This document shows positions 13,795 through 59,721 of a stretch of 64,000 bases of DNA, piece after piece. The position numbers and the translations under genes were made by a program. The stretch is from the NCBI GenBank assembly GCA_049999805.1, contig JBNGIO010006370.1, positions 249,212-313,211 of the forward strand. The letters are read 5' to 3'. Numbering within the stretch: position 1 is the first letter of the stretch; each line of letters begins with the position of its first letter. The notes below the pieces were generated by a model. That model was not told the DNA's origin, searched no databases, and worked only from the letters and a program-made list of their open reading frames with translations. Origin of the DNA: Folioceros fuciformis (lineage: Eukaryota).

Positions 13795-14194
13795 NNNNNN
13801 NNNNNNNNNNNNNNNNNNNNNNNNNNNNNNNNNNNNNNNNNNNNNNNNNNNNNNNNNNNNNNNNNNNNNNNNNNNNNNNNNNNNNNNNNNNNNNNNNNNN
13901 NNNNNNNNNNNNNNNNNNNNNNNNNNNNNNNNNNNNNNNNNNNNNNNNNNNNNNNNNNNNNNNNNNNNNNNNNNNNNNNNNNNNNNNNNNNNNNNNNNNN
14001 NNNNNNNNNNNNNNNNNNNNNNNNNNNNNNNNNNNNNNNNNNNNNNNNNNNNNNNNNNNNNNNNNNNNNNNNNNNNNNNNNNNNNNNNNNNNNNNNNNNN
14101 NNNNNNNNNNNNNNNNNNNNNNNNNNNNNNNNNNNNNNNNNNNNNNNNNNNNNNNNNNNNNNNNNNNNNNNNNNNNNNNNNNNNNNNNNNNNNN
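13795..14194. other. Assembly gap (400 N)
   Basis: Run of N beginning after a C-run, upstream of the WAPL ATG. Confidence 1.
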
Positions 14195-20534: not shown

Positions 20535-23500
20535 CTAAGAAAGTGGGCCTGGACCTTCATCGTCTTCCTCGTGCTTCCCTTTGTCCAGACTAAGAGGCCA
20601 GAAGGGGGACCATGTCCAGCAGACAACAGTGGCAATGACCAGTCCCAACACAAAAAAGACGAGCGAAGGTCCTGCAAAGCCATGACAAAACGTACTGTCA
20701 AACTGAGCCCATGCTGGCACCAAACACCAATTCCGGATAGACTGGACAGCTTCAGACTGACGGGAGCCTTCACCGTACCCGGGAGGAAATCAGAATTTCG
20801 ACTCAGAGCCCAAGAGAACCTGCCCCAAGAAACACGAGATCACGAAATTACGAGCCGAACACATGCTTCCATAGCACTTTGTCACAAGTCTGTAATCAAG
20901 AACAACGTACAGTAGCCCTCCAGTCTCTGGGGCGATGGTAGTCGTCAAGGCCATCGTACTGACTGCTAGACCGTTTGCTGCACCTCTTTCACTCGGTTTC
21001 TGAAAGCAGGAAGGGCCCCAAGGGGTGAGTTCAGGATGCAAGCGCTACAGAAGCCGCACGGCGTGTAAATGGATGGTCAGGTCGAGATGAGATACCACGG
21101 CATTGTTGACCAGTAGAAATGCTCCGTCCATGGTTGAAGTCTGTCACAGAGGAGGGCAAGGAAAGGGATGACACAGGATAAGGGTGACATGCTCTGTTCC
21201 ATATAACAGACATGCTCCTAGGAATGCACACTCTGCTGTGTAGGAGGGTCCTCACCGATGCGATGTTCTTGTAAAGTGATATCAAAAGAATGAGCAGGAA
21301 CGTAGGCGCGCCCACAAGTTGGCCTGCCAGCGGAAATAAAACCATGGTGGGCAATGCTAGAATCTGCATCCATTGGGCAACGTTGCAAGTCAGGATTTTA
21401 ACGGCAGAACATAAATGTAGTAGCGCTTGCTACGTTGGATAAGATACTACAACAAGCAAGGAACTGACATGCCACCGTATACAACGACGGACGAGCAGTA
21501 ACATGAGCAACAGGGAGTCTTACAGCAGATAGCCGGATGACTTTACTGGGTCCAAGGTAATTGGTTACAGGAGGGAAGACAAAAAGCTGCCAAAATAGCA
21601 ACCCAAAACCTGGCACAGGTGCATCGAACAACGGCGTTGGATGAGGACCAGGCATAGTTGAAAAACAACATCGCAGCAGAGAGATGGGTTGAGTGTACCT
21701 GAGACGGTTAGAATGTTTCCAACTTGAACTGAAGTAAAACCCAGCCCTCCAATGCTTTTGGGACTCAGTGCCCAGAAAGAAAAACACTGGAGAGCAAGGT
21801 AGTTCAACCCTGAGTATGCCGAGTGCACAGCAGGCAGACAATGCGGCTGCGCGGGAGTGGGGTCAACGTACTTCTGTGAAGGACACCTCGAACAATGCCC
21901 ATATGGAGAAGACATAGATCGAAGCCAGCAACGGGTAGTTCTTGAACATAGCCCATGGCGATTTCTTCGCTTTGGGTGGTGACTGTTCCACGATCGTCTG
22001 GGCGTCTGAAACCGGGACAATGTCCTCGTCATTCAACCCTGCGTCTGCCCTCTTTCCTTCGTCATCGTAGGTAACGGCAAGCTTGGGTGCATTTTCATGG
22101 AAATGAAGGGTCTCCTGCACAGTTCACTCACTTCAGCACGAGCTTGCATCGATTTGATTTCAGTCTGGAAGACAGAACGGAATCTGGACAACAACGTAAC
22201 TGGAAGCTGCGTTGTAATGAGAGCTCCCACGGTAGCAGTGGCAGCGGCGACAACAGAGGGCAGCAGATATGGGTACCTGCACGTCACGACAGACCGTGGT
22301 GAGATCCACTCCCTAGCAAAGCTGGCTGGCAGGCCTTGGATCAGTGTGACTTACCGATCGAAGAAGGAGCCAGGAGGGAACAGGTCAGGATAGCTCAAAG
22401 ATGGCTGCACAAGCGTCCAATGCGAGATGTCTTACATACAAATGGGCGGAATGACTACCAGAGACGGGAGTGAGCAGCAACCATCGACCCACCCATCAGC
22501 TTAGCTCACCCGTGCAAGATATCCCCCAATCGCAGGGCCAATGATTAAGCCTAGACCCCATGACGTCCCTACCTGCACAGACAAACGAGGAGGGACTGAC
22601 GGTCTCTTATCTGGAGGGATCAGTTCTGCAGCCAATGAAACTAAGAACTCTGATAGGGAGACAAGCAAACCCAGCATACGAAGCACTGCTTTGGATGGGT
22701 TTACTCACAACTGAAACACTCAGGGCTTGCTGCCGTTCATTGCAAACCTCCGATGCAAAAACCTGCGCAATTGGCACCCTCCGTTGAAAAATCTGCTGAT
22801 TTAAGGAAACGTACAAAATCGAAGCGACGACTTCACAACATTCTCCCACCTTCGCGGGCCCAAACGAGCCATTCAGGAGACCGAGAAGCAGACGGCAGGT
22901 GAGGGCCATCCAGTAATTGTAGCTTGCTCCAAACAGCAAGTTGAAAATAGCTCTGCAAACCAGTACTTACCGTCGGTCACGTTCCGCTCTGGCGCAAATC
23001 CGGAACGAATACAGGAATACAGCTGGGCTACTGCACTCACATGGAAGCGAGACCTATGAGGATGATTGGCCTCCTGCCATACTTGTCAGACCAGATGCCC
23101 CACTGCCAGGCGCTCAAGAACCTCCCGAACATGAACGACGAGCCTGGAGACCATCCAGCATCGCCTTCTCAGCACGTCCCAGCACAGTACAGAACAGTAA
23201 AAAAAAACGCTAGCAGCTCGAAACCAACGGACTGGGACGGCATACCTAACAATCCAGCATAGATACCAATATCTTCGTCTCTTGCAGCAATGTTGAAGTC
23301 CTTGACCTGCATCAACCAATTCATCAAACGCTGACAGCAATGTGCGCAAGACTAGCTCCACGTGAGCGGCAGGAGACTGTACCATGAAGTAGACATAAGG
23401 GAACAGGGAGGTGGTGGGCATTGCTGCAGAAAACCACGATATCGGCACGGATCAGCATGACCTTCATGGCATCGACCGCCGGATCCCACAAATTTTGCAG

Positions 23501-23659
23501 ATAGAGGTGCTCACCATTGCAGAAGACGATGAGGGCCACAAATAGCAGCTGCGCATACGGGGGAGATTTGCTGGCGGCTGCTCGTTGGGCAACTTTGCAT
23601 CCGGGGCAGTCAGGATACACCTTTCTGTTACGCAGAAGCGGCTGCTCCAAATCCGCCAT
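20535..23659 (-). CDS. ZIFL1: Zinc-induced facilitator-like MFS transporter, multi-exon
   Basis: MADLEQPLL...YPDCPGC, MPTTSLFPYVYFMV, WGIWSDKYGRRP, LLGLLNGSFGPAK, WGLGLIIGPAIGGYLA, YPYLLPS, QETLHFH, ERGAANGLA, FLPGPSLVFFVL. Confidence 0.9.
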
Positions 23660-24450
23660 CGCCCGAGCGCGCACTCCGCTGGAGTGCTGAATAAAAGGAA
23701 CTTGACAGTGTAGAATGCTTGAATAAGTATCACGTCATACCCGCCAGACGAGCGGATGTACCAATAATTGTCGGAAGACTCGCACGTTCTGCAAGTCTGA
23801 AATTACAGACCCATAATCACTATGCTTAAGGACAGGAGTCCTGACAGGCCACTCGGTGGTTGCGTACGAAAAAAGTCTTGCTACTTCATATAAGCCTGTG
23901 AATAGGCCTCGTGGCGCGAGTACTGCCCCTCATCGGGTAGGGAACACTGCCAGCATGACTGGCCAGGTAGTAACCGTCTGAAAGAGGCAAACAAATAAGG
24001 CCTCCACTCTTCAAAGCTGGAGGGAAGCACCTCGTGTACAGCGGCTGACCAACTTTTCCGAACAGGTTCTTGTGGACAACTTTATTCCATGCAGTGGCTA
24101 CTGCATTCTTTTTTATTTCGTAGTCCACCAACGTCCGTTCTAGAGCAGTGGTTGCAATGCTAATCCAGATAACGAAGTAAGAACGTATACACTGCAGATC
24201 ACTAAGCCCACCCACTCTGGTCTGTGACGCCACGATGTCCCAAGGGTCGGCACGTCGCCCTGAAACAAGCCTGTATGTACCAAGCATGCCATATTACCCT
24301 GGACTCGAGACATTCCAGGAAAAGAATTTGTGTACACCCGATGTGGACGTGGGGATCCAATCCCACAGTTCACACAAAATACTGGGCCTCAACCCATCCT
24401 TTCCCTTGCACAAACAAGGGGGTGAGAAGAGAGGTGGGTCTTGTCATACG

Positions 24451-25157
24451 TCAGGAGCTTCGTCCCTGTAGAAGGTTGCTAAAGGACGGGGCTGGCCTGT
24501 TCCGCAACTCCTCCTGTACTCTCTTCATCTCCTCTGGATCTGAACACACAACGAAAGAGCGAGAGTGAGATCCGTCACTAGGGTTTGTGGCACGCACCCA
24601 ATCCAGGCACCATCGAAAGCCTAGCAATACCCACCCACGCTGTCCATGAGCTTCGGCAAAACGATTACTGCCAACCCCATGAAGCCAACCATGAGCCCCA
24701 TGGGACTCTTGAGCAGAGCCAGCACAGAAAAAGGCTCTCGCTTCTCGTAGTACTGCTCAACCTGAGCCGGAGCTAGCTGCAGAGGGTCCGGCAGTATCCG
24801 CCGAGTCTCGGTGTAAATGGCATGCACATCTCCCCGAAGCCGATCGCTCACATCCAGCCGCACCGGGGCGAAGGAGTACCCCGGCGCCGCCACCTCCAGG
24901 AGATGCGTTCCCGGAGGCACGCCATGGAAGGCGAAGTAGCCGTCTGGTTGAAGAAATGTCACCCGCTGGCCCCCGTTCAGCAGAAGCTTGACCGAAGCCG
25001 CTACCTTGTCGGCGAAGGCAACCACCTGCACCCGGCCCTCCACCAGGTAGCCGCCCCCCTCCGGCTGCCGCTGCTGCCTAGAATCCGCGCAATCCGCACC
25101 GGAAGCCAGCAGGAGTAGGAGGAGAAACGCGGCAGCAGCCGCCGAGGCCGCCACCAT
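24451..25157 (-). CDS. EMC7: ER membrane protein complex subunit 7, two exons
   Basis: Signal peptide [95 protein letters not shown]...PKLMDSV|DPEEMKRVQEE. Confidence 0.93.
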
Positions 25158-27069
25158 GGTCACAGAGCGGTGGGGCACCACTGTGTCTCGCCTCGCGCTC
25201 GAACGATATCGATCCCTGCCGACAAAGGGCAAACCGCAGGGCAAGGAAATCACCGTCCTGGCCGCCTTCCTTCTCTCCCGCGACCCCGATTACTCCCACG
25301 ACTCGAGCGTCTCCAACCCTGACCACCCCAGGACCCCCGGCAGCGTCTCCGACAACGACGCCGCTAAGGCAACAATCGGACAGGAGTGTAGACAGGGCAA
25401 CAACGCCTCCAACCGCGACTCCCACGACTCATCAAACGTCTCCAACCTGGGCCCCAACAGTGTCTTCAACCACACCTCCAACTACATCTCAAACCACGAC
25501 TCGCACGTCTCAGGCTCGGTGGAGGTGGTGGCTCTGGGAACCGGAACCAAGTGCCTCGGGAGGTCGCGGCTGACCGAGCTTGGAGACGTGGTTAATGACT
25601 CACACGCGGAAGTGATAGCCCGCCGAGCTCTGCTGCGGTGGGAATTTTCTTCCGCTGATCCTCGCTGATGTTGTAGGAGGGAAAGGAGTCGGGAATCTAA
25701 ATTCCTTGTTGGTGCGGCGGCAGGTATCTGTATTCGGAGATCGACCGCCTATGCCACGGCGATGACGGATCCATTTTCGAGCGTGTGGAAACTGCGGAGC
25801 CAGGACGGAGGAGCGTATGTAGGCTGCGGGGAGGACTGCGCTTCCATCTCTACATCAGCCAGTTGCCGTGCGGAGATGCTTGCATATTTCCCTGCTCTGG
25901 ATGCCTCGGGTATGGTGCAGCGTCGGCATCTGCGTGCCAGGAGACAGGAGTGGTGCGCAGGAAGCCGGGGCGTGGAGACGCCACTCTGTGCATGAGCTGC
26001 AGTGATAAGATTGCCCGCTGGAACGTGCTTGGCCTGCAAGGTTGGCTCCTTGATTTTGCGATCCGTTTGCGTCTGTATTTCGTGCTCTTCTGCGTGCTGT
26101 GGTTGTTGTTTTGTTGTTTGACTTGCTCCGTGAAGAAGAAGAGTACGTGGAATTGGTGTGGACAGGAGCTCTTCTCATGCACTTCGTCGCTGAGCCTATA
26201 TATCTTTCGTCCATATCGGTGGCTGTGGATGAGAGCTCTGGCCATGGCCTGCTCGGTGCGGACGCCCAGTGTAGCCGGCTTGCATTTGAAGCTTTGGAGC
26301 GCGCTGTGCATGGCCGGCTTGTTCCTGTTGCCGACACCTTTCTCCCTCCTTTCAAGCTGATTCAGCCGACTACCTTCAAGGCTCCCCTTGCTCCCAGCGA
26401 ATTCCGGCAGCCTGTCGATAACTGCTTGGTTCCAACCTGCGGGTCGGGTCCAGCCTGTACCCAACCTTGGATTGTGCTGTTATGCGTGTACCTGTTGACT
26501 GGCGATTCATGTATTTTCCCTTGTTTGACGCCTAGGTTGCTTGGTTCAGGTACTCCATAAGCTGGAACAAAGCGGGTTTGCATGATGTGATTCTGGGAAC
26601 TACCGGGCGGAAGCAAGGAACATCGTCTAAGGGTGCACTGTCTCCTGCTACTCAATCGAAGATTTGCAAGTAAACTCTCATCACCTTGCTTAATGGAATG
26701 CCGGGGAAGTGGATGCAAGTTTTTGTCACAAGGGCTCCTGGAATTGTCAAGAACATTGAACTCACACGGTGCTTACTGTGCAGGAGACATTTGTTTTCCT
26801 ATTTCGTTTATCTCTTGCCGCACTTTTTACCTCCTGCAGACTTCTACGATTCTGCATACCAAGAGATGAAGGTTGCTTTTGATTTCACAACTGGGTTTGC
26901 CTACACTTTATACTGCGTTTTTCCCAGCTCCGTAATCCGTTGAACCTGACTGTTAGGACAGGACTCCGCTCAACTGTACGCATCTTGCCGACGAGCTCTT
27001 CTCTGCAAACCGTCACCTTTTGGAGAGTGGTTAGTGAAGCCTACTTCGCAGCAGTCATTCAAACGCTAA
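25156..27069 (+). CDS. TAD1: tRNA-specific adenosine deaminase 1 (ADAT1/TAD1), multi-exon
   Basis: N-terminus [107 protein letters not shown]-terminal WLVKP, stop at 27067-27069. Confidence 0.93.
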
Positions 27070-27370
27070 CCCTGGAGTCCTGGTTAGCGACTGAACTTCT
27101 TGATGAATCTGGTGAACGGCCTTTGCCGATGCTTGGCTAGTTCTGTTGCGGAGTTAAAATTCAAGCTTAGTTTGAAGTTTAGGCTGATGACTTCACTTGG
27201 TTTGGGTTTGTCTTTAATGATGGCAGAGTCCCAAATTGAGTTCAATTCAAACATCTCCAACCCCAAGAATGGATGCACAATTTCTGTCCCACACTACTGG
27301 GGAAATTTGGGTACAACATTGGAGCGCTGTGTCACCAAATTGCGTCCTTCGAACAACACCGCCTTTCACT

Positions 27371-29321
27371 TCACAGTAAAGCACGCCCCTGTTTGGCTTT
27401 TAGTTGCTGATCAACCCACGTCTCAATCATAACCCGGGATGACTGCGGCTGGTCGTGTGGAACCTGCGGTCACGAAGAACAAGGCGAAAGGACTGTCAAA
27501 CTAGGGACACTTCCATGATCAGTACCCTAAATACCTGACAGCGCACAGAAGTCTACAATGAGTACGTTGAGTGGAGCGCCTTTATACCTGATGGCCGGCC
27601 CCTCTGAAGACAACATGTGTAAGGTTCTGGCTTTGTCTCCAATAACCAGCATGTGTACCATTCACCCTCCAAATTTCTCTTGTTTGTGACCAGAACCGTT
27701 CACCATGCTGCCAATTAAGCATCCTCATCCATGCTTCGGACCCATATGGGCCATCCTTGGCATCATACTGTCCCTGAAATAGCAGAACCGGATACCCTGC
27801 TTCCAAAATGTCTTCCACTAACTGTTTCGTAGATTTCATGGTATCCTGGAAAAGAAGACGTCTGGAGTGTTAGTATTCACCCGTCGAAATATACAGCCCA
27901 GAGAACTGGCATGATGAAAGGAAGACTAACCTCAGCCATCAAGCTACGAATGGATTGTTTGCAGCTGACCCACGTTACTCCTGGATCAGCTTTCAAGAGG
28001 GTCTTCACATGGGCTTCATTTAGAAACTTAGCCAAGTACTCGCTGCCATCCTGTGATAAGGACAACAACAGCAAGCAGTTATTCAACAAAACTTCACCCC
28101 CGATATGACAACTGGGAAGAACAGAATATCGTTGTATATCGAACTTACCGTCAAGTGATGGTATTTTGTTAGCCGACGGACATCCAGCAGTGTTGCTATC
28201 CCACTTGTTTCCTCTATCCACTGAACGAGTGCGGTTCTGGCTTCATGGGCTTTCAGCCACTCTCCCCTGGAAAAGGTAAAAACAGGCACGTAATCAACAC
28301 GAGGTTATGTGCGGGTCCCCCACATTCGCGCAAGAGTGAAGAGCTACGGGAAGATTTATCTACCTGTCAATTAGGGCTACAACTTCTTCAGCCATATTTT
28401 GGCATTGTGCTTTTTGTGGCTGATCAAGTAGACCGAAACAGTAAGCAACGTCTGAATGGGATTGCACCTGCAATCCGAGTCATTTACATGAACACTTCCA
28501 CTAGGGTGACAAAAGAAGAAACGAAGACGGCCATTCAGAGGGCCACTTAGTAGAAGAGAGGACATCACAATCACCTGACTCCGTGGATGGGTCAACCCAT
28601 TTCCCACCGCTATTCCCATAAGTTGGGTCCCAACATTGTGCCGATTGTGAGGCTGTGGATGGTTTATCAGATAATGAGCAAGAGACGGAACATACTTCCC
28701 GGCGTAGCTTTCTCCGGCCAAGAAAAGGGGTCTCAGCTCAAATGAGGGATTTTCAGCGATGAAAGACGACAGCGCATGGTGGAGATGGGCTGCTACAGTA
28801 TGCTGATCCTTTGGGACATCATCATCAGAAGATGCAATGCTGAAACCTGTCCCAACAGGACTATCGACAAATAGCACTCCATACCTGCAACGCGTGCAAA
28901 TGTGATGGAGCAGTCAGTAACAAACCACTTGGCCAGCATATCAACTATGAAGTCGTAGAGGGATGGCCAGGCAAACACAAAAAATCACTCTCGACAGGCA
29001 GACACACCTATTATTCCAGGCCCATTCATTGTGGTGCAAACTTCCGGTTCTACTAAACCGCCACGGCCCAAGTTCATAGAAGCAACCAATAAGGCTTGAA
29101 CACCCAGGGCCTCCATTAAGCCAGAGTAAGAGAGGGGCATCCACAAGAGAGGTCCGGGGATCTGTTGCTTCATAGAAAACGTAGAAAAGTTGGGACCTGC
29201 TGGAGTCGCTAACAGGAAGGTAACCTGAAATTGTTGGCACAGCCTCCAAAGGAAAAGTTACCGTTACTGCCTTGGCCGCTTCTTGCACTGGAACGGCTTG
29301 ACAAATCTGTGTTATCAACAC
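27371..29321 (-). CDS. Serine carboxypeptidase-like protein (SCPL50-like), multi-exon; N-terminus uncertain
   Basis: WLNGGPGCSS, FVDSPVGTGFS, GESYAGKYVP (Ser), GNGLTHP, GQYDAKDG (Asp), GAGHQVPHDQP (His). The start codon is unresolved and is probably in an upstream exon. Confidence 0.88.
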
Positions 29322-34229: not shown

Positions 34230-36146
34230 CTAGTGGCCATCGCCACAGGAACAGCATCCTTCTACAAAACGATGAACACGGTGGGCATCTCGCACTATGA
34301 TCTCACGCTTCTCCACACGAGACATGATCTTGGTTCCACTGTGACAGTCATCACACATTCGAAGATTCTTCGTCACCAGAAGAGGTGTGCCATCAGCAGT
34401 GTTGAGCAGTCCAAATGCCAAAGCAAGCTTCTCGGCATGTCCACACAGGGCATCTTCCTTCTCCTGCTCGGGCACAGGCCTGAGCACGAGGTCTGTATGT
34501 GGGACATGGCCCCCCTCCTCTTTCAGCTGCAGATTTGCACTCTTCAGTCTGGAGGAGAGGTCCTCCCTCTCCTCGCCCACCACGAATGCATGGACCTTGC
34601 TTCCCACCTCGATCCAGGCCCTAGCAGGCTTCTTGCAGGCACCTGTGAGCTTTCTCAGGTTCTCAATGCTGTCCACGTCCTGCCACCTGCCAGCATCAGC
34701 ATAGATGTTCGACATGAGGACGTAAGCACCTGCGTACTGAGGTTCCAGTAGGATGAGGCGGTCGAAGCACCGTCTGCCACGAGCCACGTCCCCGTGGCTT
34801 CTGCACGCAGTTAGCAAGGATGTCCAACCTGCTACGGTCGTTTCGAATGGGACACCCAGCAGCAGCTTTTCGGCCTCGTCCAGGTGGCCTGCCCGTGCAA
34901 GAACATCCACCAGGCAGTTGTAGTGACAGGCGGCAGGAGTGATGCCATGGTCTTCCACCATCATCCGGAAATACTGCTGACCCTGTGTCACCAGCCCCTG
35001 GTGACTGCACGCCACCAGCAGACAGATGAATGTCGCATCGTCAGGCCCCACCCCATGCTGTTGCATTTCGCTGAAACACTTGACTGCCATTTGGCCTGCG
35101 TTGTGTTGGCCGTAGCCATTCAGCAAAGCATTCCATGTAACCACATCCTTTCTGGGCAGTCTGTCGAACACTCTTCGAGCATCGTCCAGGCTTCCGCACT
35201 TGGAGTACATGTCCACCAGGCTGTTGCCCACCACCACATCCCCTTCCAGGCCCCTTTCCTGGATTTGGAAATGAAGCTGCTTCCCCTGCTGCAATGCACC
35301 AACGCTCGCACATGCTTTCAGAAGGCACGAGTAAGTGAAATTCGTGGGGGCGGTGACACCCTGATCTTGCATGCTGGCATAAAGAGCAAGGGCTTCCTGT
35401 CCAAGTCCATGCTGGGTGTACCCAGAGATCATTGCATTCCATGTCACCACATCTCTCGAGGACAAGCTATCAAACACGCGCCGAGCATCCACTAAGCTGC
35501 CACATTTTGCATACATGTCCACCAGACAGTTGGAGACGAAAACATTCGCCTCTGTCCCGTTCCCTAGAACATCAGCGTGAACGAGCTTGCCAGCCGCCAG
35601 ATCCGCAGCACCTACACATGCCTTCAGGACTGCCGAGAATACATGGTTGTCCGGCTTCAAGCTCGTCGTCTGCATCATCAGATGATACAGCTCTATGGCT
35701 CGACCAGGCTGCCCATGCTCTGCATGGGCCAAGATGACAAAGGACCATGTGAAAGTGTTCGGTGCCGCCAGCTTGTGAAACACCTCCATCGCCTCCTGCA
35801 ACCTCCCATGAGACGAATACATGCGGATGAAGTGGTTGGCCAAAAATGTGTTGGACTCATGTCCACATTTAAGAGACAGTGCATGTACGTGCCTGCCGGA
35901 TACCAGATCCTTCCTTGCAATGCACCCCTTGACCACATGGTAGAAGAGAGATGCAGGAACGAACGACACCCGTTGCACCAAGAGGTCCAATGCATCAACT
36001 GCCACCCTCGGATGCCCCTGCTCGAAGAGCTTGGTCCAGCTTTCGAGCTCCAGAGGTGCCTCACACCATGCCACCCTGCAAGATTTGAGGACGTGATCAT
36101 CGAAAGGAAAGAAATGTAACCTCACACACTTAAGCAGCCACACCAT
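34230..36146 (-). CDS. PLS-class PPR protein with a variant DYW domain (KP type: KKPA, HAEK, terminal DGH)
   Basis: Uninterrupted ORF with PLS repeats (LVDMYAKCGSL, DVVTWNAMISGY) and an E domain, then KKPARAWIEV, HAEKLALAFGL, KNLRMCDDCH and CSCGDGH*. First ATG is at 36146; upstream exons are possible. Confidence 0.93.
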   Translation of the reverse strand: MVWLLKCVRLHFFPFDDHVLKSCRVAWCEAPLELESWTKLFEQGHPRVAVDALDLLVQRVSFVPASLFYHVVKGCIARKDLVSGRHVHALSLKCGHESNTFLANHFIRMYSSHGRLQEAMEVFHKLAAPNTFTWSFVILAHAEHGQPGRAIELYHLMMQTTSLKPDNHVFSAVLKACVGAADLAAGKLVHADVLGNGTEANVFVSNCLVDMYAKCGSLVDARRVFDSLSSRDVVTWNAMISGYTQHGLGQEALALYASMQDQGVTAPTNFTYSCLLKACASVGALQQGKQLHFQIQERGLEGDVVVGNSLVDMYSKCGSLDDARRVFDRLPRKDVVTWNALLNGYGQHNAGQMAVKCFSEMQQHGVGPDDATFICLLVACSHQGLVTQGQQYFRMMVEDHGITPAACHYNCLVDVLARAGHLDEAEKLLLGVPFETTVAGWTSLLTACRSHGDVARGRRCFDRLILLEPQYAGAYVLMSNIYADAGRWQDVDSIENLRKLTGACKKPARAWIEVGSKVHAFVVGEEREDLSSRLKSANLQLKEEGGHVPHTDLVLRPVPEQEKEDALCGHAEKLALAFGLLNTADGTPLLVTKNLRMCDDCHSGTKIMSRVEKREIIVRDAHRVHRFVEGCCSCGDGH

Positions 36147-36774
36147 GCTGCCAGCCACGTTGACCCATCACCAAAACATGCAGAAAGCAGATGGGAAAGT
36201 CTTTCACCTTTCAGACACCTCAGAGCCAACAAATCCAGCTTGGTCGGACAAAATCTTTGCTGATCGAACCTCCTCCACCCACGCAGGTTGGGAATCCACC
36301 CACAAGGCCTCTCTGGTTGCGCTGTGCACGAAGTCAGGATACCTGCGGCTGCTCTGCAAGGGTGGCAACAAATCAGGCCCACTGCTGCCAAGCCCATCTC
36401 TTCCACCAGATGGCACGGCAAGCTCTACGTACCTTATTCAACCTGGTGTCCCACCACAACGCAGGGTTGGACACGAATTTCCTCCACAGCGCGTCCCGCT
36501 GACTCGGATACACTGCAAAGCAGCGTCCTCCCCATCAGATTACGAGACAAGAAAAACGACTGCAAAGAACGAAGCACTCAGCACAAGGTAGCACACTCAC
36601 CGCCTATTGTGCGTTGCTCGGCCACCGGAGCCCGCAGCGATGAGAAATATCTGGGTCTGCGGGGAAGCAGCCTTGACACGATCTTCCGGCCTCCGCCACG
36701 CTTGATCATTGTTCTGGTCTCCTGCATGCAGGAATTCCAGCCCCGACACCACCGCCTGGCATTCTGCTTCAAGT

Positions 36775-42893: not shown

Positions 42894-43328
42894 CTAATAA
42901 CCCCTTTGATAATGTTTTTGGCCATTTGTTTGTGTTGCTCTTTTTTTAGGGCGGCTATCAGGAGGTGGGTTTTGCATTATAGGATCTAGTACCTTAGCGT
43001 CGCATATAACAAGTTTCACAGATCCATCCACCTGCACATCCCTCTTGCCTTCTGTGTGAAGCACCACTTGCTTTAAAACGAAGCACCACAAGCTTTCACA
43101 ATATCGGTAGCTATCTACGTGACCTTTCAAAGTCATCTTGGAATGAACTATGTTCTTTAGGGCCTCCATTAGAGACTTGTTAAATTGCATCAAAACCTTG
43201 ACAGCAAGAATAGGTGGGATGGAGCCTTTCTCCACATGCGCACTTAGTGATTCAATCAGGCATTTTCCAATTGTGCTACCCCCATAGATCTCCAAGGGTT
43301 CTAGAACATCACTCCTCATCATGTTCAT
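42894..43328 (-). CDS. Intronless, divergent transcription initiation factor IIA gamma (small subunit) paralogue
   Basis: EIYGGSTIGKCLIESL...LAVKVLMQFNKSLMEAL...LKGHVDSYRYCESLWCFVL...VKLVICDAK parallels canonical ELYRRSTIGMCL...QFDKSMTEAL...KGHLHTYRFCDNVWTFIL...VKIVACDSK. Confidence 0.85.
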   Translation of the reverse strand: MNMMRSDVLEPLEIYGGSTIGKCLIESLSAHVEKGSIPPILAVKVLMQFNKSLMEALKNIVHSKMTLKGHVDSYRYCESLWCFVLKQVVLHTEGKRDVQVDGSVKLVICDAKVLDPIMQNPPPDSRPKKRATQTNGQKHYQRGY

Positions 43329-43424
43329 CTAAAATGATCGAAAATTAGTTAGGTATCTCATACATCTATAGGCTTTAGGCGTCAAAAGTTTCTTGGAAAT
43401 CTTGTTGAACTCCGAGAAAAGATC

Positions 43425-43450
43425 TGGTTGCTTATGATCATAAGCAACCA
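43425..43450. repeat. Perfect 26-bp palindrome
   Basis: tggttgcttatgatcataagcaacca equals its own reverse complement. Confidence 0.95.
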
Positions 43451-43523
43451 ATTGGGTTTAGGCACCTAAGTACCAGGCTACCAGCCCCAGGTATTGGCAG
43501 CTGAAGCCAGTTGGAAGGGATCT

Positions 43524-46500
43524 ATGGATAGTTCTAGCCTTATGTGCACACTACGGGGCGGGTCGTCGTGGTTCTCGGCCCGGAGGCCCCTCTGGGAGAT
43601 AGCCGGTCATGGCTGCGCCAGTCTCACCCGCCTGCACGACCGAGCGGTAACACATTCCCAGTTCTTGCCCCAACTCCTGGCGCAGCACCTCCGTTACCAC
43701 GGTCCTCTGCGCTTGCCTTCGTCGCGCGGCACAATGTCGGGGCGCACGGTGCAGGACATGCTGATGCAGGCCGCACGGGCGCAGGCCAGAGCAGGCCGCC
43801 CTCCGGTCTCGCACAACAAGGGCCAAGACAAGGAAAAGGACAAGGACAAGGAGGCGGAAGAAAGCAAGCAGGTGGGGGACAATCAGCAATCCACGGCTGA
43901 CGCCGCTGCGGAGGAGCTGCTGAAGAAGCACCACAACTTCGATCCCGCCGCAGCGGTTTTCTGGAAGCAGGGGGATCGAGTGCCGTTTCTCTTCCTTGCC
44001 AAGGCGTTCGAATGTACGTTGCTGGCCCCAGGACCGGATTTTGAACAATTTGTTTGCTGGCCGACATGTTTGTGACTGGTGTGTTGCGTGGCAGTGATCG
44101 CCAATGAGTCGGGTAGGCTGGCGATGACGGACATCTTGAGCAATGTCTTTCGCACGGTCATTGCCTGTCAGCCGAGCGATCTGTTGGCGGTGGTTTATCT
44201 CGCGGCGAATAGAATTGCGCCTGCGCACGAGGGCTTAGAGCTCGGGATAGGGGATGCTGCCATCATCAAATGTTTGGCGGAGACGTTCGGGAAGAAGGAT
44301 GAGCATATCAAGTCGCAGCTGAAGGTGGAGGCGACGTCCTCTTTGCTGTCTGAAGAACTGCGGTGAAGTGGAAGTCGTATTCATGACTTAATTTTGGATA
44401 TTCGCAGGGCCTCGGAGATCTTGGTCTCGTGGCAAAAGCCAACCGGTCCATGCAGCGCTTGATGTCCAGGCCTGCTCCTCTGACCTGTGTGAAGGTTTTG
44501 GAGGTATTCCGGGTCATTGCCAAGGCAAGCCGCTGACACTGCACCATGAACTCAGGTCCTTCAAGCCCTTCATGCAAGCTTTGAGTTATTTGGAACCATC
44601 TCAGAACATTTGTGTCCGAGCTGTGAAGTTTCGTATTCCCACTTGCAGTTCTGAAATGTCTTCAGGAAAGTGGGAAAGATAGCCAGGATAAGAAGCGAGC
44701 TAAAATCAAATCTCTTATTGTGGCAGCCACTGACTGCGAACCTCAGTATGTGATCCGCCTACTTCAGGTTGGTGTTCCGTTCCCACGAGCCTTTGCTAGG
44801 TTCTGTTAGGTACTTCAAGTCTAGTGAGCATATTCCTTAAGAACAGCCTAGTGTCGTGGTTGCGACTCCAGGGAAAGACAAGAATCGGGTTGGCAGAGAA
44901 GACGGTGTTAGCTGCGTTGGCTCAATCGGCTGTCCTGTCGGAGCAGCCTCGAGTTCCGACTGCACAATTACCCAGCCGGATCGAGGAGGTTAGTTTCCCT
45001 GATCCGTAGCTCATCAAACAGTTTCGCCTGCTTGACCAGTGCGTTAAACCCTGCTATGGAGTAACTGCTCAAATTATCTTCAGAGTCCCCTAATTTTTTT
45101 TCAGTTTCTGTGCTACTCCAGACTTTAAATATTTCCTTTGTGTTGTCTGCAGGCGCTTCAAATAATGAAGCGAACCTACTCTGTCCTGCCGATATACGAC
45201 AAGATTGTTCCTGCCCTTTTGAAGGATGGAATCCGAAAGCTACCTGATGTCTGCAGATTCACTCTGGGAGTACCGATCGGGCCAATGCTGGCCAAACCTA
45301 CGAAGGGTGTGTCTGAAATATTGGATAAATTTCAGGGAACCTTGTTCACTTGCGAGTACAAGTACGATGGAGAACGGGCACAGGTATTTGTTGCCACATG
45401 CATGTGACTCAAGCGCCAAGAGGAACTAAAGTGCAAAGCCTACTTCAGCAGATGGCATATGGACCAAAGTTCCTCTTACTCCTGGAGCTAACCCCTTTGT
45501 ATTGTTGCATGATCTGCAGATCCACTACCTAGAAGACGGTTCAGTGGAAATATACAGCAGAAATGCAGAACGAAACACTGGGAAGTTTCCTGATATAGTG
45601 GCGTCTGTAAACAGGTGCTTAAATTTGCTGCCTTGTCCCTTCCCCGGTCACCACGCTTCTCTGGCCATGTGTTGCTATCAATTCATCCTGTATTGCTCGT
45701 TACAGCTTCAAGAAACCTGAGGTGACATCCTTTGTGCTGGACTGTGAAGTAGTGGCATATGATCGAGATAACAACAAGATTCTACCATTCCAGGTTTTGC
45801 CATGTGAACATTTGGCCTGACTCAGCTATATTTTTTGCTACTCGTGTGATCAGAAACTTACCTCCGCTTTTATTGAACGCAGGTTAGCATGTTCGTAGTC
45901 GACACCTCGTGGCGTTGCATGTGAAGCCCTTGGTCCAAGGTTTGGATGTAAAGCATTGGTGTCTGCTGCAGGTTCTGAGCACCAGAGCTAGAAAAGGAGT
46001 TATTGTTGAGGACATCAAAGTCCAAATATGCCTGTTTGCCTTTGACTTGTTATACCTCAATGGCAGGGAGCTCCTGCAAGAACAGCTTAGTGTCCGACGA
46101 GAGGTATTGGGCTACATTGTATAGCACTTTTTTATTTATCTTGTTAAAATGCTGTGACCTCCATCCAACCACAGATTTTTGACTTGAGTGCTGTGTAGTT
46201 ACTTTACAACTCATTTCAAGAGACACCAGGGAGATTTCAATTTGCAGTGGCAACATCTAGTAATGAGCTTGATGAAATACAACTGTTCCTTGACGATGCA
46301 GTTAATCACTGGTAAGTGTCTCAACCTGGAGTATGTGATTAAAGCTTTTTTTTGGGTCCCTTTACTCTCTCCTTATAAGAACTGTTCTGGTCCGGCATCT
46401 AGCTGTGAAGGACTGATTGTGAAGACTTTGGATAAAGATGCTACTTATGAACCATCTAAGCGCTCGCAGAAGTGGCTGAAGTTGAAGAAGGATTACATGG

Positions 46501-47681: not shown

Positions 47682-49121
47682 CAAGTTGCAACATTCAGGA
47701 ACTCCGCCGCCGTATGGCTGGAAGGTATGCTGCTGCGGCTCCAGTGTGTGTGTGGTTGTTTTACAACGGTGTATCTCACATCTCTAAGGCCTTATGATGT
47801 GTCCAGATGGGACGTTGGGTGCGTGAACAGCAAGCTGCTCATCTGTCTCTGCGGGCTACTCGTAAAGAGATGAGCATCAGCTGTTGATCATCGCCCGTAC
47901 ATGATGTCATGACCGGGCTTGAATAATTCTGATTCAGCTCAGCATGGAAGACGGGTGTGAGACCAACAAGAACGTATTCATTTGCTAGACATGACATCAC
48001 AGCTTCATAGCTACGCAGGTGCAAGATGGGCGACGCAGTATATATCTGATAGCTTGTCGAAAAGTGTGGGTCTCGCTTGCATCTCTAAAGCATCGTGTTG
48101 CCGCGTTGTACTCTCTGAACATTTCCTAAGGCGAGGGTCGGCTACCATTGTCAGGGCTGGTTTCTGATGCGGAGGCGTCTGGCTTGTTCATGTTTTACGT
48201 CCCGCGAGCCGCAGCATTCTTTTCTCGTGAAAATCTGTGTTTCCGATGTGCTCTCGGAATGCGAGACAAAGTTGGATCGGTGTGTAGATGTTGCAAGTGT
48301 CGAATTAAAGATGACATTCCTTTTGCACTGGTTGGCATGATACACTAGACGATCCTCGTTCAGTTTCAGCAGTACGAGTAAAATCTGGAGTCACAGCGCC
48401 TATTGAACCTCATCCTGCAGCTGCTATTGTATCCTCTCCCATATTGTTACGTCGATTTCGTTGGAAATGCTCAGAATGCTGCATGAGCTGCATCAGGACG
48501 ACACCTCAGGAAACGTTAGGCGATTGGATTGCCTTGTCCGATACGACAAAAATTGCTCCTCAGGAGCAGGTGTTCTTCATGTGGCCCGTCAGTTTTGCTA
48601 TCGGACCACACTGCATCAAGGTTTCATTCGTCTATCAAGACTGAAGCTCAGGAATGCTCCATGGCAGCCAGAAGATTCCCAACAACTTTGAAAGCAAACG
48701 GATTTTCACTGAAACAATTGCAGCTGAGGGTAGGATTTGGCAGAGGCTTACCTTCTGTTTGTGGTGTACAGCTTGTGCCTTGCTTACTGAATCCATGGCT
48801 GTTGGTTGTGGTGGCTTGCAGGTGCGTTCAAGCATATGGACGTCATGTGTCAGGAATACTTGTGGGATCCTTTTCAGCAGGTGGACAAGGGCTCTAGCAA
48901 GGTACAGGGCTGCCCTAGTTTTCTGAAAGGCTTCGATTGATGTCTCTTGGCTCTATGGGTTTGATCCGTATCTGTCCAGCATGATCCCAGGTATCCAGAC
49001 TTCAAGCACGAGCAGTCAAAGGAGGGGCTGCAAGCAACGCTAGATGCAATGACGCAGCCAAGTGGATGTGAATATAGTTCGTCACAGGGTTACCGGAGGT
49101 TAGTATGCATGTTAGTGGTCA

Positions 49122-51965
49122 ATGCTGTTACAGTTGTGTTGTCTGAAATGCTCATCACGTTGCCGTACCTTGATCTGGCAGCGGGTTGTTACTTACCGCA
49201 GGTACCCAGAGGACGTGAGCCAACTTTGTAAAGGTGGTCATTTGAAGGAAGCATTGATCCGTCTGGATAGCCTTGGTGAACTGGGAATTAGGGTATCCAC
49301 CAATAGTTACGTTTGTGTTTTGCAGGAATGCATTAAAAGGAAAGCCTTGCGACAAGGCAGGCACGTGCATGCTCAAATGATCAAAAGTGGGTTGGATTTG
49401 AATATTCCTCTGGGAAGAAGCCTTGTAAGACTCTATGCCACATGTGGACAACCTGCACTGGCACATGAGGTTTTCTGCCAGATGCCCGAGGAGGATTTGT
49501 TTGCATTGACTGGACTTCTAAAGGGGTATGTCGATAACGGTCGAGCTGCTGAGGCTTTGAAGGTATTCTATGGAGTACAAAGGAGCTGTAAGGTAGACAA
49601 GTTCGTGTATGCCATCATAATCAATGCATGCGCAAGTTTGTCCAGTTTGGTTGAGGGCAGGCGAGCTCATGCTCGGATGTTTGAAGATGGGGTCAAGGCG
49701 GATGTTCTGGTGGATAACCTACTCCTTGCCATGTATGTCAAGTGCGGTAGCATCCTGGACGCACAGAAGCACTTCGAGAGGATGGCACAGCGTGATGTAA
49801 TATCATGGAATACGATGATCAGCGGGCACATCCAACATGGGGGCGGTGTTGATGCATTGTGCTTGTTTCAAGAAATGCTGCGGATTGGCCAGCCCCCTGA
49901 CGTGGTCACCTTCATTTGTGCAGCAAATGCATGCTCCACTATAAGAGATCTGGGAAAGAGCAAGCTTGTCCATGAGTATATACGGAAGGCTGGCACAATC
50001 CACTGTGCGTCTTTAAGCAATGCTCTGGTGCACATGTATGCAAGATGTGGAAGCCTGCAAGATGCTCTGGAAGTGTTCAATGGCATGTCACAGAGAGATG
50101 TAGTTTCCTGGAATGCCATTATACAAGGACATGCTGAGCAAGGGCTCGTAGAAGAAAGTTTTCAACTTCTGAAGCAGATGTGTAGCTGTGGATTGAAGCC
50201 TAATGTGGTCACCTTTCTATCTATGTTGCGAGTGTGTACAAACAGGGCAGTACTGGAAGAATGTAAACAGCTCCATGATCTTGTCATCAGGAGCGGCCTT
50301 GAATCAGATGTCTTTGTTGGCAACTCAATTCTGGACATGTATTCAAAGTGCGGAAGCCTACAAGATGCACGTCAAGCGTTTGATGGGATGTCTGCCAAAA
50401 ATGTAGTTTCATGGACAACTATGGTTGGAGCATATGCTCATGCTGGGCTTGGTGAAGAGGCCCTTGATCTGTATGAATTGATGCAACTGAAGTCAGTGGA
50501 GCCAAACAAGGTCACCTTCGTTTGTGCCCTGAAAGCATGTGCCACAGCTAGGGCACTGGACATGGGAAGGAGGATCCACAAGGACATTATTAACTGTAGA
50601 GTTGCTTTTGATGTTGTGTTGGAAACAGCCCTGGTGGATATGTATGGTAAATGTGGGGTTATTGATGAAGCCCATCTGATTTTCGACAACATGTCCTGCA
50701 GAAGTGTGGCGACGTGGAATGCAATGATAGCGTCGTGTGCTCAGAGTGGACATGAGGAAACTGCTCTTAATATTTTCCAGAAAATGCAACGGGAAGCCGT
50801 TAAACCAGACGTGGTCACCTTTGTTTCAGTGCTGAATGCATGCTCTGGACTAGCAGCACTAAAGGATGGCCAACAAGTCCACGCTTACATGATTCGTTGT
50901 GGGGAAGAATTAGACAACATTGTGCAAAATGCACTGGTGGACATGTATACTAAGTGCGGGAGTCTAGATTCTGCTCAGCAAGTTTTTGACAACATGCACG
51001 TTCGAGATGTTGTCTCATGGAATGCTCTTATCAAAGGATATGCCCAACATGGGTATGGTGATCGAGCTATGAATCTCTTCAAGCAGATGCAGCAAGAGGG
51101 GGTGAAACCTGACTTAGTTACATTTGCAGCGGTTCTAAATGGATGTGCAAGCATGGGAGCTTTGGCACAAGGCAGGTGGATCCACACCCTCATAACCAGA
51201 AGTGGACTGAGTGGTGAGACCTTTGTTGAGAATGCGCTTATAGACATGTATTCGAAGTGTGGGAGCATAGATGATGCTCGTGAAGTGTTTTGCAGAATGA
51301 CCAAACGTGATCCAGTCTCATGGAGTACAATGATTGCTGGCTATGCTCAGCATGGTTGTAGCAACCACTCTCTGATCCTTTTTGAAGAACTACTGCAAGA
51401 AGGTGTACCAGTTGACCACATAACGTTTGTTGGAGTGCTGTCAGCTTGCAGCCGTGTTGGACTTATTGAACGAGGAGTTAAGTACTTCAAATCTATGTAC
51501 ACCGATCATGGCATCACCCCCACGGATGCGCACTATGCGTGCCTCGTAGACCTTCTAGGCCGAGCAGGTCAGCTTGATGAAGCTTTTGAGGCTGTGAAAG
51601 GAATGCGATTCCAGCCGAGTGTGATGGTGTGGACATCACTGCTGGCAGCCTGTAGAATTCATAGGGATATAGAGCTTGCAGAAGAAGCCGCCAAACAGAT
51701 AATTGCGCTGGAACCCCAAAATGCTGCTGCTTTTGTTTTGCTAGCAAACACTTACGCAGCAGCGGGTAGAAGAGACGACCAACTGAGAGTACGGCAGATG
51801 ATGAGAGACAGCGGTGTGAAGAAACAACCTGGGCGAAGTTGGATCAGCGTCGAGAACCATGTGCATTTGTTCAATGCAGAAGACCTGTCACACCCACAAC
51901 GTGATGAGATTTATGCCATGGTGCAACAGTTAAACATACAAATTTCAGAGCACGGCTGTGCTTAG
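49122..51965 (+). CDS. Long PLS-class PPR protein, E+ type with canonical PG box
   Basis: 947-aa ORF of PLS triplets (DVVSWNA, VTFVSVLNAC, LVDMYTKCGSL). Ends VKKQPGRSWISV...DLSHPQRDEIY... and stops before any HxE/CxxC motif. The true start may be in upstream exons. Confidence 0.93.
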   Translation: MLLQLCCLKCSSRCRTLIWQRVVTYRRYPEDVSQLCKGGHLKEALIRLDSLGELGIRVSTNSYVCVLQECIKRKALRQGRHVHAQMIKSGLDLNIPLGRSLVRLYATCGQPALAHEVFCQMPEEDLFALTGLLKGYVDNGRAAEALKVFYGVQRSCKVDKFVYAIIINACASLSSLVEGRRAHARMFEDGVKADVLVDNLLLAMYVKCGSILDAQKHFERMAQRDVISWNTMISGHIQHGGGVDALCLFQEMLRIGQPPDVVTFICAANACSTIRDLGKSKLVHEYIRKAGTIHCASLSNALVHMYARCGSLQDALEVFNGMSQRDVVSWNAIIQGHAEQGLVEESFQLLKQMCSCGLKPNVVTFLSMLRVCTNRAVLEECKQLHDLVIRSGLESDVFVGNSILDMYSKCGSLQDARQAFDGMSAKNVVSWTTMVGAYAHAGLGEEALDLYELMQLKSVEPNKVTFVCALKACATARALDMGRRIHKDIINCRVAFDVVLETALVDMYGKCGVIDEAHLIFDNMSCRSVATWNAMIASCAQSGHEETALNIFQKMQREAVKPDVVTFVSVLNACSGLAALKDGQQVHAYMIRCGEELDNIVQNALVDMYTKCGSLDSAQQVFDNMHVRDVVSWNALIKGYAQHGYGDRAMNLFKQMQQEGVKPDLVTFAAVLNGCASMGALAQGRWIHTLITRSGLSGETFVENALIDMYSKCGSIDDAREVFCRMTKRDPVSWSTMIAGYAQHGCSNHSLILFEELLQEGVPVDHITFVGVLSACSRVGLIERGVKYFKSMYTDHGITPTDAHYACLVDLLGRAGQLDEAFEAVKGMRFQPSVMVWTSLLAACRIHRDIELAEEAAKQIIALEPQNAAAFVLLANTYAAAGRRDDQLRVRQMMRDSGVKKQPGRSWISVENHVHLFNAEDLSHPQRDEIYAMVQQLNIQISEHGCA

Positions 51966-53317: not shown

Positions 53318-55630
53318 TCATCCTGCAGATGCGCAAAATCGATCCTCGGAATCACTACCAACCTCTGCATCTATCTGCATTTGCAGCTCGTGGCAATCGG
53401 AAGGTGACTGACTACACAAGGTCTTGTTTGAAATGCCTTTAAAAACAGCAAAAGCATCAGGATGACAACTCAGAAATCGCGTAGCAAACGCGTCCTCTGA
53501 CACAACAAAGATTGTCCCCCAGGCGTAGTCCTTCTTCACGCACCCTGTCTGTTTGAGCAATTGAATCACCCTCCAGCGAGGCTTCATTCTCTGTTCAAGA
53601 CTGTAGCTCAGCAAAGCTGGAGTGCGGACTATGGCAGCCAAAGGAAGCCCAATATCCCTGAAAAAATTCATCTTCTCTGTCATGTAATCCTCCTTCACAT
53701 GGAAAATGGAAGGCTGCCGCATAACTAAGGACGTAACATCAGACCCAGAAAATCCAAAACTCAAAAGATGCTGATATCGAGCTCTCACTGTAGTGGCACC
53801 AATGCTGAAACAAAATGCTACACCATTGGCCATGGCAAGTGATCCCTCCTCGAACCCTAAATCCACTAGGAGTTTGACCAATACTGCAAGGCTTCCATCC
53901 ACAGCATGTGTAAGGACACGAGGCCGGCTGGCCACTAGTCTGCACAGCTTATCCCTCTGCAGCCCTATCCCTTGAAGAAAGGCCAAAGTCGGCTTCATCG
54001 ATCCTTCCACACTTCTTAACATCAGAGTTGGGCATGATGAAATCACCCTGCCAATCACTTGTTTCTTGATCCCAATGGACAACAGGAATTCAACCTTAGG
54101 AACCATAGAGCTTTGAACGCTCAAATCCATAATGCCTGGTGCTTTTTCGAATACCCTTTTGATGTTTACACCTAGGCTCTCTAGGTACGCAATTTTAGGC
54201 ATCAAGTTCTTTTCGATGCTATAATACAGAAGTTGTGGACAACGATCGATGATAGAACCAATGCTACTTTCAGCCACCCCTCTGTCACGCAAGAACTGGA
54301 GCTTAGGTAGCATAGTCTTTGCCATACTGAGACCAAGAATCTGGGGGCAACGCTGGAATATTGAAGGTAGTCTATTCCTTGGGACACCAATTTTCTCCAG
54401 GAACTCTATCTTAGGCTGAAGATTCTTCTCAGGACTCCTGTCAAGCAAGGATGGGTTAGAGGCAACAAAACTTTTGATATCACTGCCAACCGTCTGCAGA
54501 TACTCCATCTTGGATGCCAGATTACTCATCACTACCAACTGTGGGTGGCTTTGTATTGTCCTTGAGATCAGCAACGTGGACACCCCCAAGTCCCAGAGAA
54601 CTTGGATATTGTCAGATGCTTTGCTCCCATTGTCTCGAATCACTTCCTCAGGATTATACCTCAGGAGGAACCCAACAATCTCTTGCTTCAGTCCAATTCT
54701 TTCTACACATTGCAGCAAAGGTTGCAGCTCTTCTTCCAAATTGGTACTCAGAATCTTAGGGCAAACTTGCAACACGTCAACCAAATGACGGGTCGGAACT
54801 CCCAGCCTCTGCAGGGACAGAATCCTCTCTCGCATATCACTCGGACTACACTTCAGAAGTGTCATGCCGTCTTTCTCTACCAGTTTCCACAACCTGGTCA
54901 TGGGTAATCCATGTCTTTCCAATTCAGCTGCCAGGGCCAGTAGGCCACAATCCCCCTCCAGCTCAAAGGATGTTGAAGCCAACGTGTCAGCAATTCGCCC
55001 GGGATCTAGGCCAATGCTCTCTAGGAAAGGTTCTAACTCATTCACGTCATGTCTACTGAGGTAATCTTCAGCACAAAGGCGTAGCAAATCAGTCTTGCTG
55101 TCCTTCCCCTTACAATCCAATAGCAATTCCTGAAACACCTGATCATGCTTTACAGCCAGCACTAGCTTTCTAACAAAACTTGGGGAGTTCCTGCTTATGA
55201 AAGCAGTATACGCTGGGTTGATGTGCTTGCAATATTCCAGGTAGCTTTGCAGACAGTCAGCACCTGCTTTTATCTCATGTGTCCAGATCTTCATCCCTTT
55301 GGGTGCCTTGGCATCCAGCACAGTATTAGGCTGTGCCTTGGTTCCCACATGCCGTCGTCCTAGAAACCTGTGACAGGGACCCCACTTCGACAAAGCCTTC
55401 CCACCATTCCAAGGCAGTGACAGTTGAGATGAACATTTCAGCAAATCTACTTCCCTCTTCAGCACACTGGCAGCGTTGGGGCACATCAAGGTATCATATT
55501 GCTTCGACATCCAGACCGGAGCCAACATAAGAGGCAAGTCAGCTGACCCACCGTCATTCTGCTGCTGGCTAGCCCTGAGCTTGCCTAGCAGTCTGCCTGC
55601 TGCTCGCCTGCAGTGCGCATTGCACCACAT
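53318..55630 (-). CDS. mTERF family protein, intronless
   Basis: Repeated LxPKIxFLxxIG...PQILGLS / PQLLYYSIEKNLMPK units and terminal PALLSYSLEQRMKPR. N-terminus resembles an organellar targeting peptide. Confidence 0.92.
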   Translation of the reverse strand: MWCNAHCRRAAGRLLGKLRASQQQNDGGSADLPLMLAPVWMSKQYDTLMCPNAASVLKREVDLLKCSSQLSLPWNGGKALSKWGPCHRFLGRRHVGTKAQPNTVLDAKAPKGMKIWTHEIKAGADCLQSYLEYCKHINPAYTAFISRNSPSFVRKLVLAVKHDQVFQELLLDCKGKDSKTDLLRLCAEDYLSRHDVNELEPFLESIGLDPGRIADTLASTSFELEGDCGLLALAAELERHGLPMTRLWKLVEKDGMTLLKCSPSDMRERILSLQRLGVPTRHLVDVLQVCPKILSTNLEEELQPLLQCVERIGLKQEIVGFLLRYNPEEVIRDNGSKASDNIQVLWDLGVSTLLISRTIQSHPQLVVMSNLASKMEYLQTVGSDIKSFVASNPSLLDRSPEKNLQPKIEFLEKIGVPRNRLPSIFQRCPQILGLSMAKTMLPKLQFLRDRGVAESSIGSIIDRCPQLLYYSIEKNLMPKIAYLESLGVNIKRVFEKAPGIMDLSVQSSMVPKVEFLLSIGIKKQVIGRVISSCPTLMLRSVEGSMKPTLAFLQGIGLQRDKLCRLVASRPRVLTHAVDGSLAVLVKLLVDLGFEEGSLAMANGVAFCFSIGATTVRARYQHLLSFGFSGSDVTSLVMRQPSIFHVKEDYMTEKMNFFRDIGLPLAAIVRTPALLSYSLEQRMKPRWRVIQLLKQTGCVKKDYAWGTIFVVSEDAFATRFLSCHPDAFAVFKGISNKTLCSQSPSDCHELQMQIDAEVGSDSEDRFCASAG

Positions 55631-56127
55631 GACAAGCTTTTTCAACGGGGACTATCGCGAATCATCCCTCCTGTACCATGTTCACAAAGCGTGAGCTTTC
55701 GCGGGGCGAACCGACCCGCTTATCCTCCCTCACCCCTCAAGCAAACCTCCGAACCCTTAACTTCATCGCACCGTTCGTACCAGTAGCGTTGGAAGTTAAG
55801 GGAACCGGGGAGGAATTGGATCCCGGGAGGGATTGGCCAAATATAGTGAAGTGACACGAGCGGAATGGGACGGCGCGGGAGGCCCGAGCAACTTCCGGCG
55901 ATACTGTAGTTGGTTTTATTCTTAAGGGTTTTAGGGTTTAAGGGAGAGAAAAAAAACCGGAAGAGGCGTAAAAACCTGAAGAGTAGGAAAAGAAACCCGA
56001 AGACAGCCGAAGGCCAAAAAAGGGACAGGCTGGTAAACAAGCATGTCTATGTTCAAGTCAGTAACTGAAACATCCCATTCGATTAGAAGGCAGCATTCCA
56101 GCATGCCAAGCCCACTACTGGACCGAT

Positions 56128-59690: not shown

Positions 59691-59721
59691 GCGTCCAGGG
59701 TTTATCAAGGAGGAACTAGTC

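Follow-up and report, generated by a model that had tools for sequence, protein, structure and literature searches.

Head-to-head EMC7 and TAD1 genes of a land plant with predicted start codons interlocked in one CATG palindrome

Coding genes that overlap head to head are well documented in both plants and animals (PMC4463847, PMC9917990). Among the TAIR10 genes of Arabidopsis, 192 divergent cis-NAT pairs have been described (PMC4463847). They resemble the pair presented below in that the partners lie on opposite strands, overlap at the 5' ends of their transcripts and are mostly protein coding. Overlap is defined there at the transcript level; at our locus it extends to the coding sequences, which lie -2 nt apart, and the excerpt reports no case of abutting or overlapping start codons among the Arabidopsis divergent pairs (PMC4463847). 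In humans, the DLG4 leader extends 62 bp into the coding sequence of VLCAD (ACADVL): the 5' UTR crosses the whole 5' UTR of the partner before entering its coding sequence, and the two genes are co-expressed (PMC9917990). That coding overlap is one-sided and the starts lie apart, whereas at our locus each leader would lie wholly within an exon of the partner and the starts are interlocked. The human INO80E/HIRIP3 locus is also a head-to-head overlapping coding pair, studied mechanistically and with expression reportedly dependent on sense/antisense interplay, but it is an animal locus and its abstract states no shared start palindrome (PMC11890862). Classical bidirectional promoters of plants have in common with our locus the divergent orientation and the probable sharing of regulatory DNA (PMC3834115, PMC2772851, PMC4035068). 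However, such pairs do not overlap and are driven from a promoter located between the genes (1258 bp in PMC3834115; PMC2772851, PMC4035068), of which there is none here, the two coding sequences being overlapped. Hornworts have a high gene density, and the excerpt on the Anthoceros genomes does not mention overlapping genes (PMC8075897). A phrase search found no published example of start codons that interlock across opposite strands, which does not prove that none exists. The EMC7/TAD1 locus described here is a new, extreme member of the class of head-to-head overlapping coding pairs.

We analyzed a 64-kb stretch of DNA (termed the window), in which the two genes have their predicted starts in the same CATG. 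The plus strand reads GCCGCCACCATGG at positions 25147-25159, and positions 25154-25163 read as GTGACCATGG on the minus strand. Direct reading and the list of open reading frames (ORFs) placed both start codons within the 8-nt palindrome ACCATGGT (25153-25160, identical on the two strands): the TAD1 start is the ATG at 25156-25158 of the plus strand, and the EMC7 start is the CAT at 25155-25157, an ATG on the minus strand. The corresponding entries of the ORF list are 25156-25668 on the plus strand (170 aa, TAD1) and 24621-25157 on the minus strand (178 aa, EMC7), and the letters AT belong to both coding sequences, for a distance of -2 nt between the genes. Each of the two starts has an A at -3 and a G at +4. 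The palindrome maps these positions onto one another, as the A at -3 of one gene is the T at +5 of the other and the G at +4 is the C at -2. Owing to this symmetry of ACCATGGT, the initiation context is favourable on both strands at once and a GTN (Val) codon follows the start in each gene, so that both proteins begin with Met-Val. CATG occurs 428 times in the 64-kb window and ACCATGGT 3 times; because both recur, the letters themselves are not remarkable. The remarkable point is that two family-confirmed genes start in one CATG, which is a matter of gene structure and not of motif statistics.

We then looked into the identity of the two genes. Judged by its sequence, the minus-strand gene is EMC7, a predicted subunit of the ER membrane protein complex. 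Exon 1 (24635-25157, minus strand) encodes a hydrophobic, signal-like N-terminal segment, a beta-sandwich domain and a membrane segment, as delineated by Pfam, tblastn, alignment and an RNA joint; its end was set by the RNA joint 24539/24635 together with the GT..AG borders on the minus strand. Exon 2 (24451-24539, minus strand) contains the conserved C-terminal tail and the stop codon (tblastn, RNA joint and splice check). The spliced coding sequence is open over 203 aa, and the RNA contig continues through the 3' UTR to 23880. The Pfam family EMC7_beta-sandw (PF09430) matched the minus-strand ORF at residues 54 to 156, with an E value of 3.3e-23 and 82.6 bits (cut-off, 26.6). Of the 1099 candidates in a protein search, 316 matched at E<=0.001, and the named relatives among the best 120 of these 316 matches are land-plant EMC7 proteins. 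The top identity among the matches listed is 65%, to a lycophyte protein and a partial Selaginella protein, and liverwort proteins reach 62%. Exon 2 showed 79 to 96% identity to the tails of homologues for five of six tblastn queries and 54% for the sixth (P0046, from Arabidopsis lyrata). In an alignment with 15 plant homologues, the signal-like N-terminal segment, as judged from the alignment, the membrane segment after the domain and the conserved C-terminal tail were all present.

The plus-strand gene is identified as TAD1/ADAT1, a predicted tRNA adenosine-37 deaminase (A37 of tRNA-Ala). Exon 1 (25156-25637), supported by Pfam, tblastn, RNA joints and splicing, contains a conserved block (aa 1 to 41), an insert and the start of the deaminase domain with H-A-E. 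The remaining plus-strand exons, all defined by RNA joints and by splicing and translation, are exon 2 (25724-26040), exon 3 (26166-26442), exon 4 (26550-26669), exon 5 (26784-26871) and exon 6 (26962-27069), which includes the stop codon (27067-27069). Every intron has GT..AG borders, and the spliced coding sequence is open over 463 aa. The Pfam family A_deamin (PF02137) matched the plus-strand ORF of exon 1 with an E value of 4.3e-14 and 53.2 bits, and further exon ORFs with 92.6 bits (25701-26357) and 35.2 bits (26054-26557), against a cut-off of 27. The spliced translation contains H-A-E, P-C-G and S-C-S-D-K, which we take to be the zinc-binding/catalytic motifs of TAD1/ADAT1. A double-stranded-RNA-binding domain, which separates ADARs from ADAT1, is absent from TAD1, A_deamin being the sole Pfam family found on the exon ORFs. 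With the TAD1 exon as query, 360 of 2155 candidate proteins matched at E<=0.001, and plant TAD1/A-to-I editase proteins account for the named relatives among the best 120 of the 360 matches. Taken together, the relatives of EMC7 and TAD1 indicate that the DNA comes from a land plant without a close relative among annotated proteins.

Between its two conserved blocks, TAD1 exon 1 has a lineage-specific insert of 77 aa rich in Ser, Asn, Asp and His (25279-25509, plus strand), delimited by tblastn, third-position GC content (GC3) and the RNA contig. Homologues from Citrus and a fern have almost nothing at this position, and in another relative (P0155) an intron is read through there. The insert is coding-like (GC3 of 0.84 versus an intron GC of 0.44 to 0.54) and is kept in the RNA contig described below. 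We rejected an unspliced intron as its explanation on the grounds of this GC3 value and the absence of a joint there, and we also rejected an origin from repeats, as the only array found was a weak one (12 nt, 2.6 copies, 25467-25497).

We next evaluated whether the two ATGs of the palindrome are the true starts. Reading from stop to stop, we found that the TAD1 frame has a plus-strand stop codon at 25048-25050, upstream of its ATG by 35 codons, and that the EMC7 frame has a minus-strand stop codon at 25290-25292, upstream of its ATG by 44 codons. Neither interval contains another ATG. The conserved LP.KGKP block starts at aa 21 of TAD1. It was found in 115 of the 120 relatives listed, at aa 18 to 199 (the other 5 are devoid of it), starting exactly at aa 21 in 8 of them and nearer the N terminus in 2. 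By tblastn, the own Met (residue 1) of a Citrus protein (P0139) aligned to 25156, and residue 2 of a fern protein (P0223) to 25165. For EMC7, the hydrophobic N-terminal segment aligned with 14 of 15 homologues, the remaining one being a partial protein. The next Met of either spliced protein comes after essential conserved parts, so no other colinear AUG is expected to give a functional product. Within colinear sequence, the ATGs borne by the CATG are therefore the sole predicted starts that retain the conserved N-terminal blocks. These results bear out several points of the preliminary description of this DNA, namely, that the CAT of EMC7 and the ATG of TAD1 lie inside one palindrome (sequence and ORF list), that each strand offers a strong initiation context (A at -3 and G at +4), that there is no intergenic DNA (two letters being common to both coding sequences), that neither open frame has an upstream ATG (stop-to-stop reading) and that both N termini are typical of their families (alignments with plant homologues).

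Evidence at the RNA level came from a public run, X1, recorded as "RNA?" (a guess); its nature as RNA rests on removed introns, as canonical introns of the two strands are skipped in its contigs. X1 contains 0.84 of the sampled words of the stretch, and all 8 of its contigs on 23000-28500 were >=99% alike to the window, with zero differing letters. Two other runs from the same study, X2 and X3, are from other organisms and gave no matching contig, even at 80% likeness. When aligned to the window, a spliced X1 contig of 2586 nt ran uninterrupted across the two genes and the CATG (23880-27081), in blocks at 23880-24539, 24635-25636, 25723-26038 and 26164-26441 and onward to 27081. It is devoid of both the minus-strand intron of EMC7 (a CT..AC joint) and the plus-strand introns of TAD1 (GT..AG). 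Since a single RNA cannot be spliced on both strands, the contig must merge two overlapping antisense transcripts; EMC7 and TAD1 are thus both expressed as spliced RNAs that overlap each other. By the continuity of the contig over the CATG, this is the 5'-end overlap of opposite-strand transcripts that defines a divergent cis-NAT. As the contig contains the same junction, it also confirms the genomic CATG junction independently of the assembly. No joint inside the first exon of EMC7 or TAD1 was listed among the X1 contigs, and the 11 further X1 contig records beyond those listed have no listed joint in either first exon.

The contigs carry no transcript ends, strand or level, and the lower limit that they set is for the two leaders taken together. 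From the unbroken path of 31-letter words, which we take to be the assembly setting of the X1 contigs, we infer a summed leader length of no less than ~28 nt for EMC7 and TAD1; this ~28 nt of cover across the CATG could also stem from rare read-through or antisense RNA. The preliminary description had the mRNAs overlapping antisense over both start codons. An antisense overlap as such was upheld by the X1 contig, which sets a bound on the sum of the leaders; both leaders may cross the start codon of the partner. The transcriptional interference or dsRNA-based co-regulation that the description raised would be possible consequences of the overlap. It had also named a silent gene and a different spliced first exon as outcomes that would count against it. 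Neither turned up, as EMC7 and TAD1 are both spliced in X1 and no joint ends near either ATG among the contigs listed. Finally, it had located each promoter and 5' UTR inside the coding sequence of the other gene. Given these starts, the lack of a spacer between the coding sequences does place each leader and core promoter in the first coding exon of the partner, so the claim stands as a structural consequence of the starts, and the positions themselves we only infer.

Scanning upstream from each start, we found that TAD1 could have an ATG-free leader of at most 197 nt and EMC7 one of at most 272 nt. We compared these stretches with 5,000 synonymous shuffles of each host exon, in which a stretch as long arose in 83% of cases on the TAD1 side and in 25% on the EMC7 side. 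Upstream ATGs are thus no scarcer than in synonymous shuffles, with no sign of selection on the overlap, and we rejected selection against them for both the TAD1 (P=0.83) and the EMC7 (P=0.25) leader sides. Neither a TATA-like motif nor a telo-box was found in 24600-25700, and the same scan gave a single TGGGCC, at 25448, no more than expected by chance.

To see how general the pairing is, we looked at 58 EMC7 loci from metagenome contigs, which are partly redundant and whose taxa are not identified. None had TAD1 nearby (0/58), whether TAD1 was sought by tblastn with 5 plant TAD1 proteins or with an HMM built from 35 TAD1 proteins, which as a positive control matched 4 exon ORFs of the window. 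The sequence upstream of the projected EMC7 start reached at least 500 nt in 39 of the 58 loci and at least 1,500 nt in 30. This indicates that the EMC7-TAD1 pairing is not general among the sampled eukaryotes, and nothing beyond that; as the pairing was not found elsewhere, conservation is unusable as support.

We propose that EMC7 and TAD1 are a real head-to-head overlapping nuclear pair, translated from starts interlocked in the CATG and with promoters in the exons of the partner, and we put the probability of this reading at roughly 0.76. Transcription of either gene by RNA polymerase II would begin within the first coding exon of its partner, in a region without a TATA box, and the two mRNAs would be antisense to one another across their 5' ends. 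Scanning ribosomes would then arrive at each ATG through a leader without upstream ATGs, and both ATGs would owe their good context, with A at -3 and G at +4, to the palindrome. We favor leaders of ordinary length, with promoters embedded in the exon of the partner, and we regard the arrangement as probably a side effect of local compaction and drifting start codons that is tolerated, rather than a dedicated regulatory device.

The length of the leaders is where a different view is conceivable. Both mRNAs could be near-leaderless (~10 to 20 nt each), like mammalian short-5'UTR initiator mRNAs, in which case the antisense overlap would cover only ~30 to 40 nt and the CATG region would be an initiator both ways. 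Several points favor this view: the summed ~28 nt that contig continuity appears to require would be enough for such leaders, no TATA box is present in the region, each strand offers a strong context and the layout would restrict polymerase collision and duplex formation. We nevertheless hold short leaders to be rather unlikely, since RNA-seq cover normally fades at 5' ends and the unbroken path suggests more than the minimum length. To our knowledge, moreover, no short-leader initiator element is established in plants, and the EMC7 context is presumably only a partial match to the consensus of the mammalian element; both points count against this view. Another possibility, which we judge quite unlikely, is that one of the genes uses another first exon or start (an upstream spliced leader exon, a non-AUG start or a minor isoform), so that the CATG coincidence would involve just one functional start. 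Introns in 5' UTRs are common in plants, which counts in favor of it, as do the X1 contig records beyond those listed (11) and the loss of rare variants in contig assembly. However, no joint ends near either ATG among the listed X1 contigs, the sequence just upstream of the ATGs is, by eye, purine- or GC-rich and not acceptor-like, both N termini match their homologues from the Met on and in-frame stops lie upstream of both ATGs. A spliced leader would in any case keep the start codons, and merely the location of the promoter would shift.

An assembly artefact, by which a spacer between the genes was collapsed or deleted at the CATG, is highly improbable. The assembly is not finished, as a gap of 400 N elsewhere in the window (13795-14194) attests, but the X1 RNA contig has the identical junction with no differing letter, and the two reading frames, each intact, adjoin exactly. 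A further view accepts the overlapping pair and regards it as selected: EMC7 and TAD1 would form a self-contained bidirectional unit, in which the palindrome is a two-way initiator of both transcription and translation, the low-complexity TAD1 insert owes its existence to housing the EMC7 promoter in a tolerant loop of the protein and the loosely constrained signal-peptide/linker region of EMC7 houses the TAD1 promoter. We consider such a unit unlikely. If it were real, promoters would shape protein sequence and the antisense 5' overlap would couple both outputs. The idea of such a unit builds on the speculation that, given an EMC7 leader of ordinary length, the proximal promoter of EMC7 would fall in the TAD1 insert.

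The locus by itself is not evidence of a new mechanism. With the start sites mapped, it would be a natural test bed, with two conserved housekeeping genes whose promoters and leaders are mutually embedded. It could show to what extent polymerase II promoters and protein-coding constraints can coexist in one sequence, whether an antisense 5' overlap couples or disturbs expression in plants and how start codons drift up to the collision of two coding sequences.

We also noted several features in the surroundings of the pair. A GT..AG joint lies in the 3' UTR of TAD1 (27083-27226), and the 3' end of TAD1 meets that of a minus-strand serine carboxypeptidase S10 gene at 27053-27615 (exons to ~29327). 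As RNA contigs overlap at 27053-27615, TAD1 and the S10 gene probably overlap tail to tail as well. Fragments of a copia-type retroelement (integrase and RVT_2), broken across three frames, are located at 536-2983 on the plus strand. A single intronless ORF of 285 aa at 59650-60504 (plus strand; GC3, 0.78) matched glycosyl hydrolase family 46 (chitosanase; 8.6e-93). This family is mainly bacterial, and the ORF may have been horizontally acquired in a land plant. Three long intronless PPR genes, of the DYW, E and E+ types, are found within 30 kb (34230-36146, minus strand; 49116-51962, plus strand; 60819-62726, minus strand), in keeping with a plant lineage in which organellar RNA is extensively edited. 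The window further contains an mTERF-family gene with a single ORF of 777 aa (53321-55651, minus strand; 3.1e-90), adjoined by a SpoU-methylase-like exon (56131-56541), and other candidate divergent pairs at 35900-36700 and 43000-44300.
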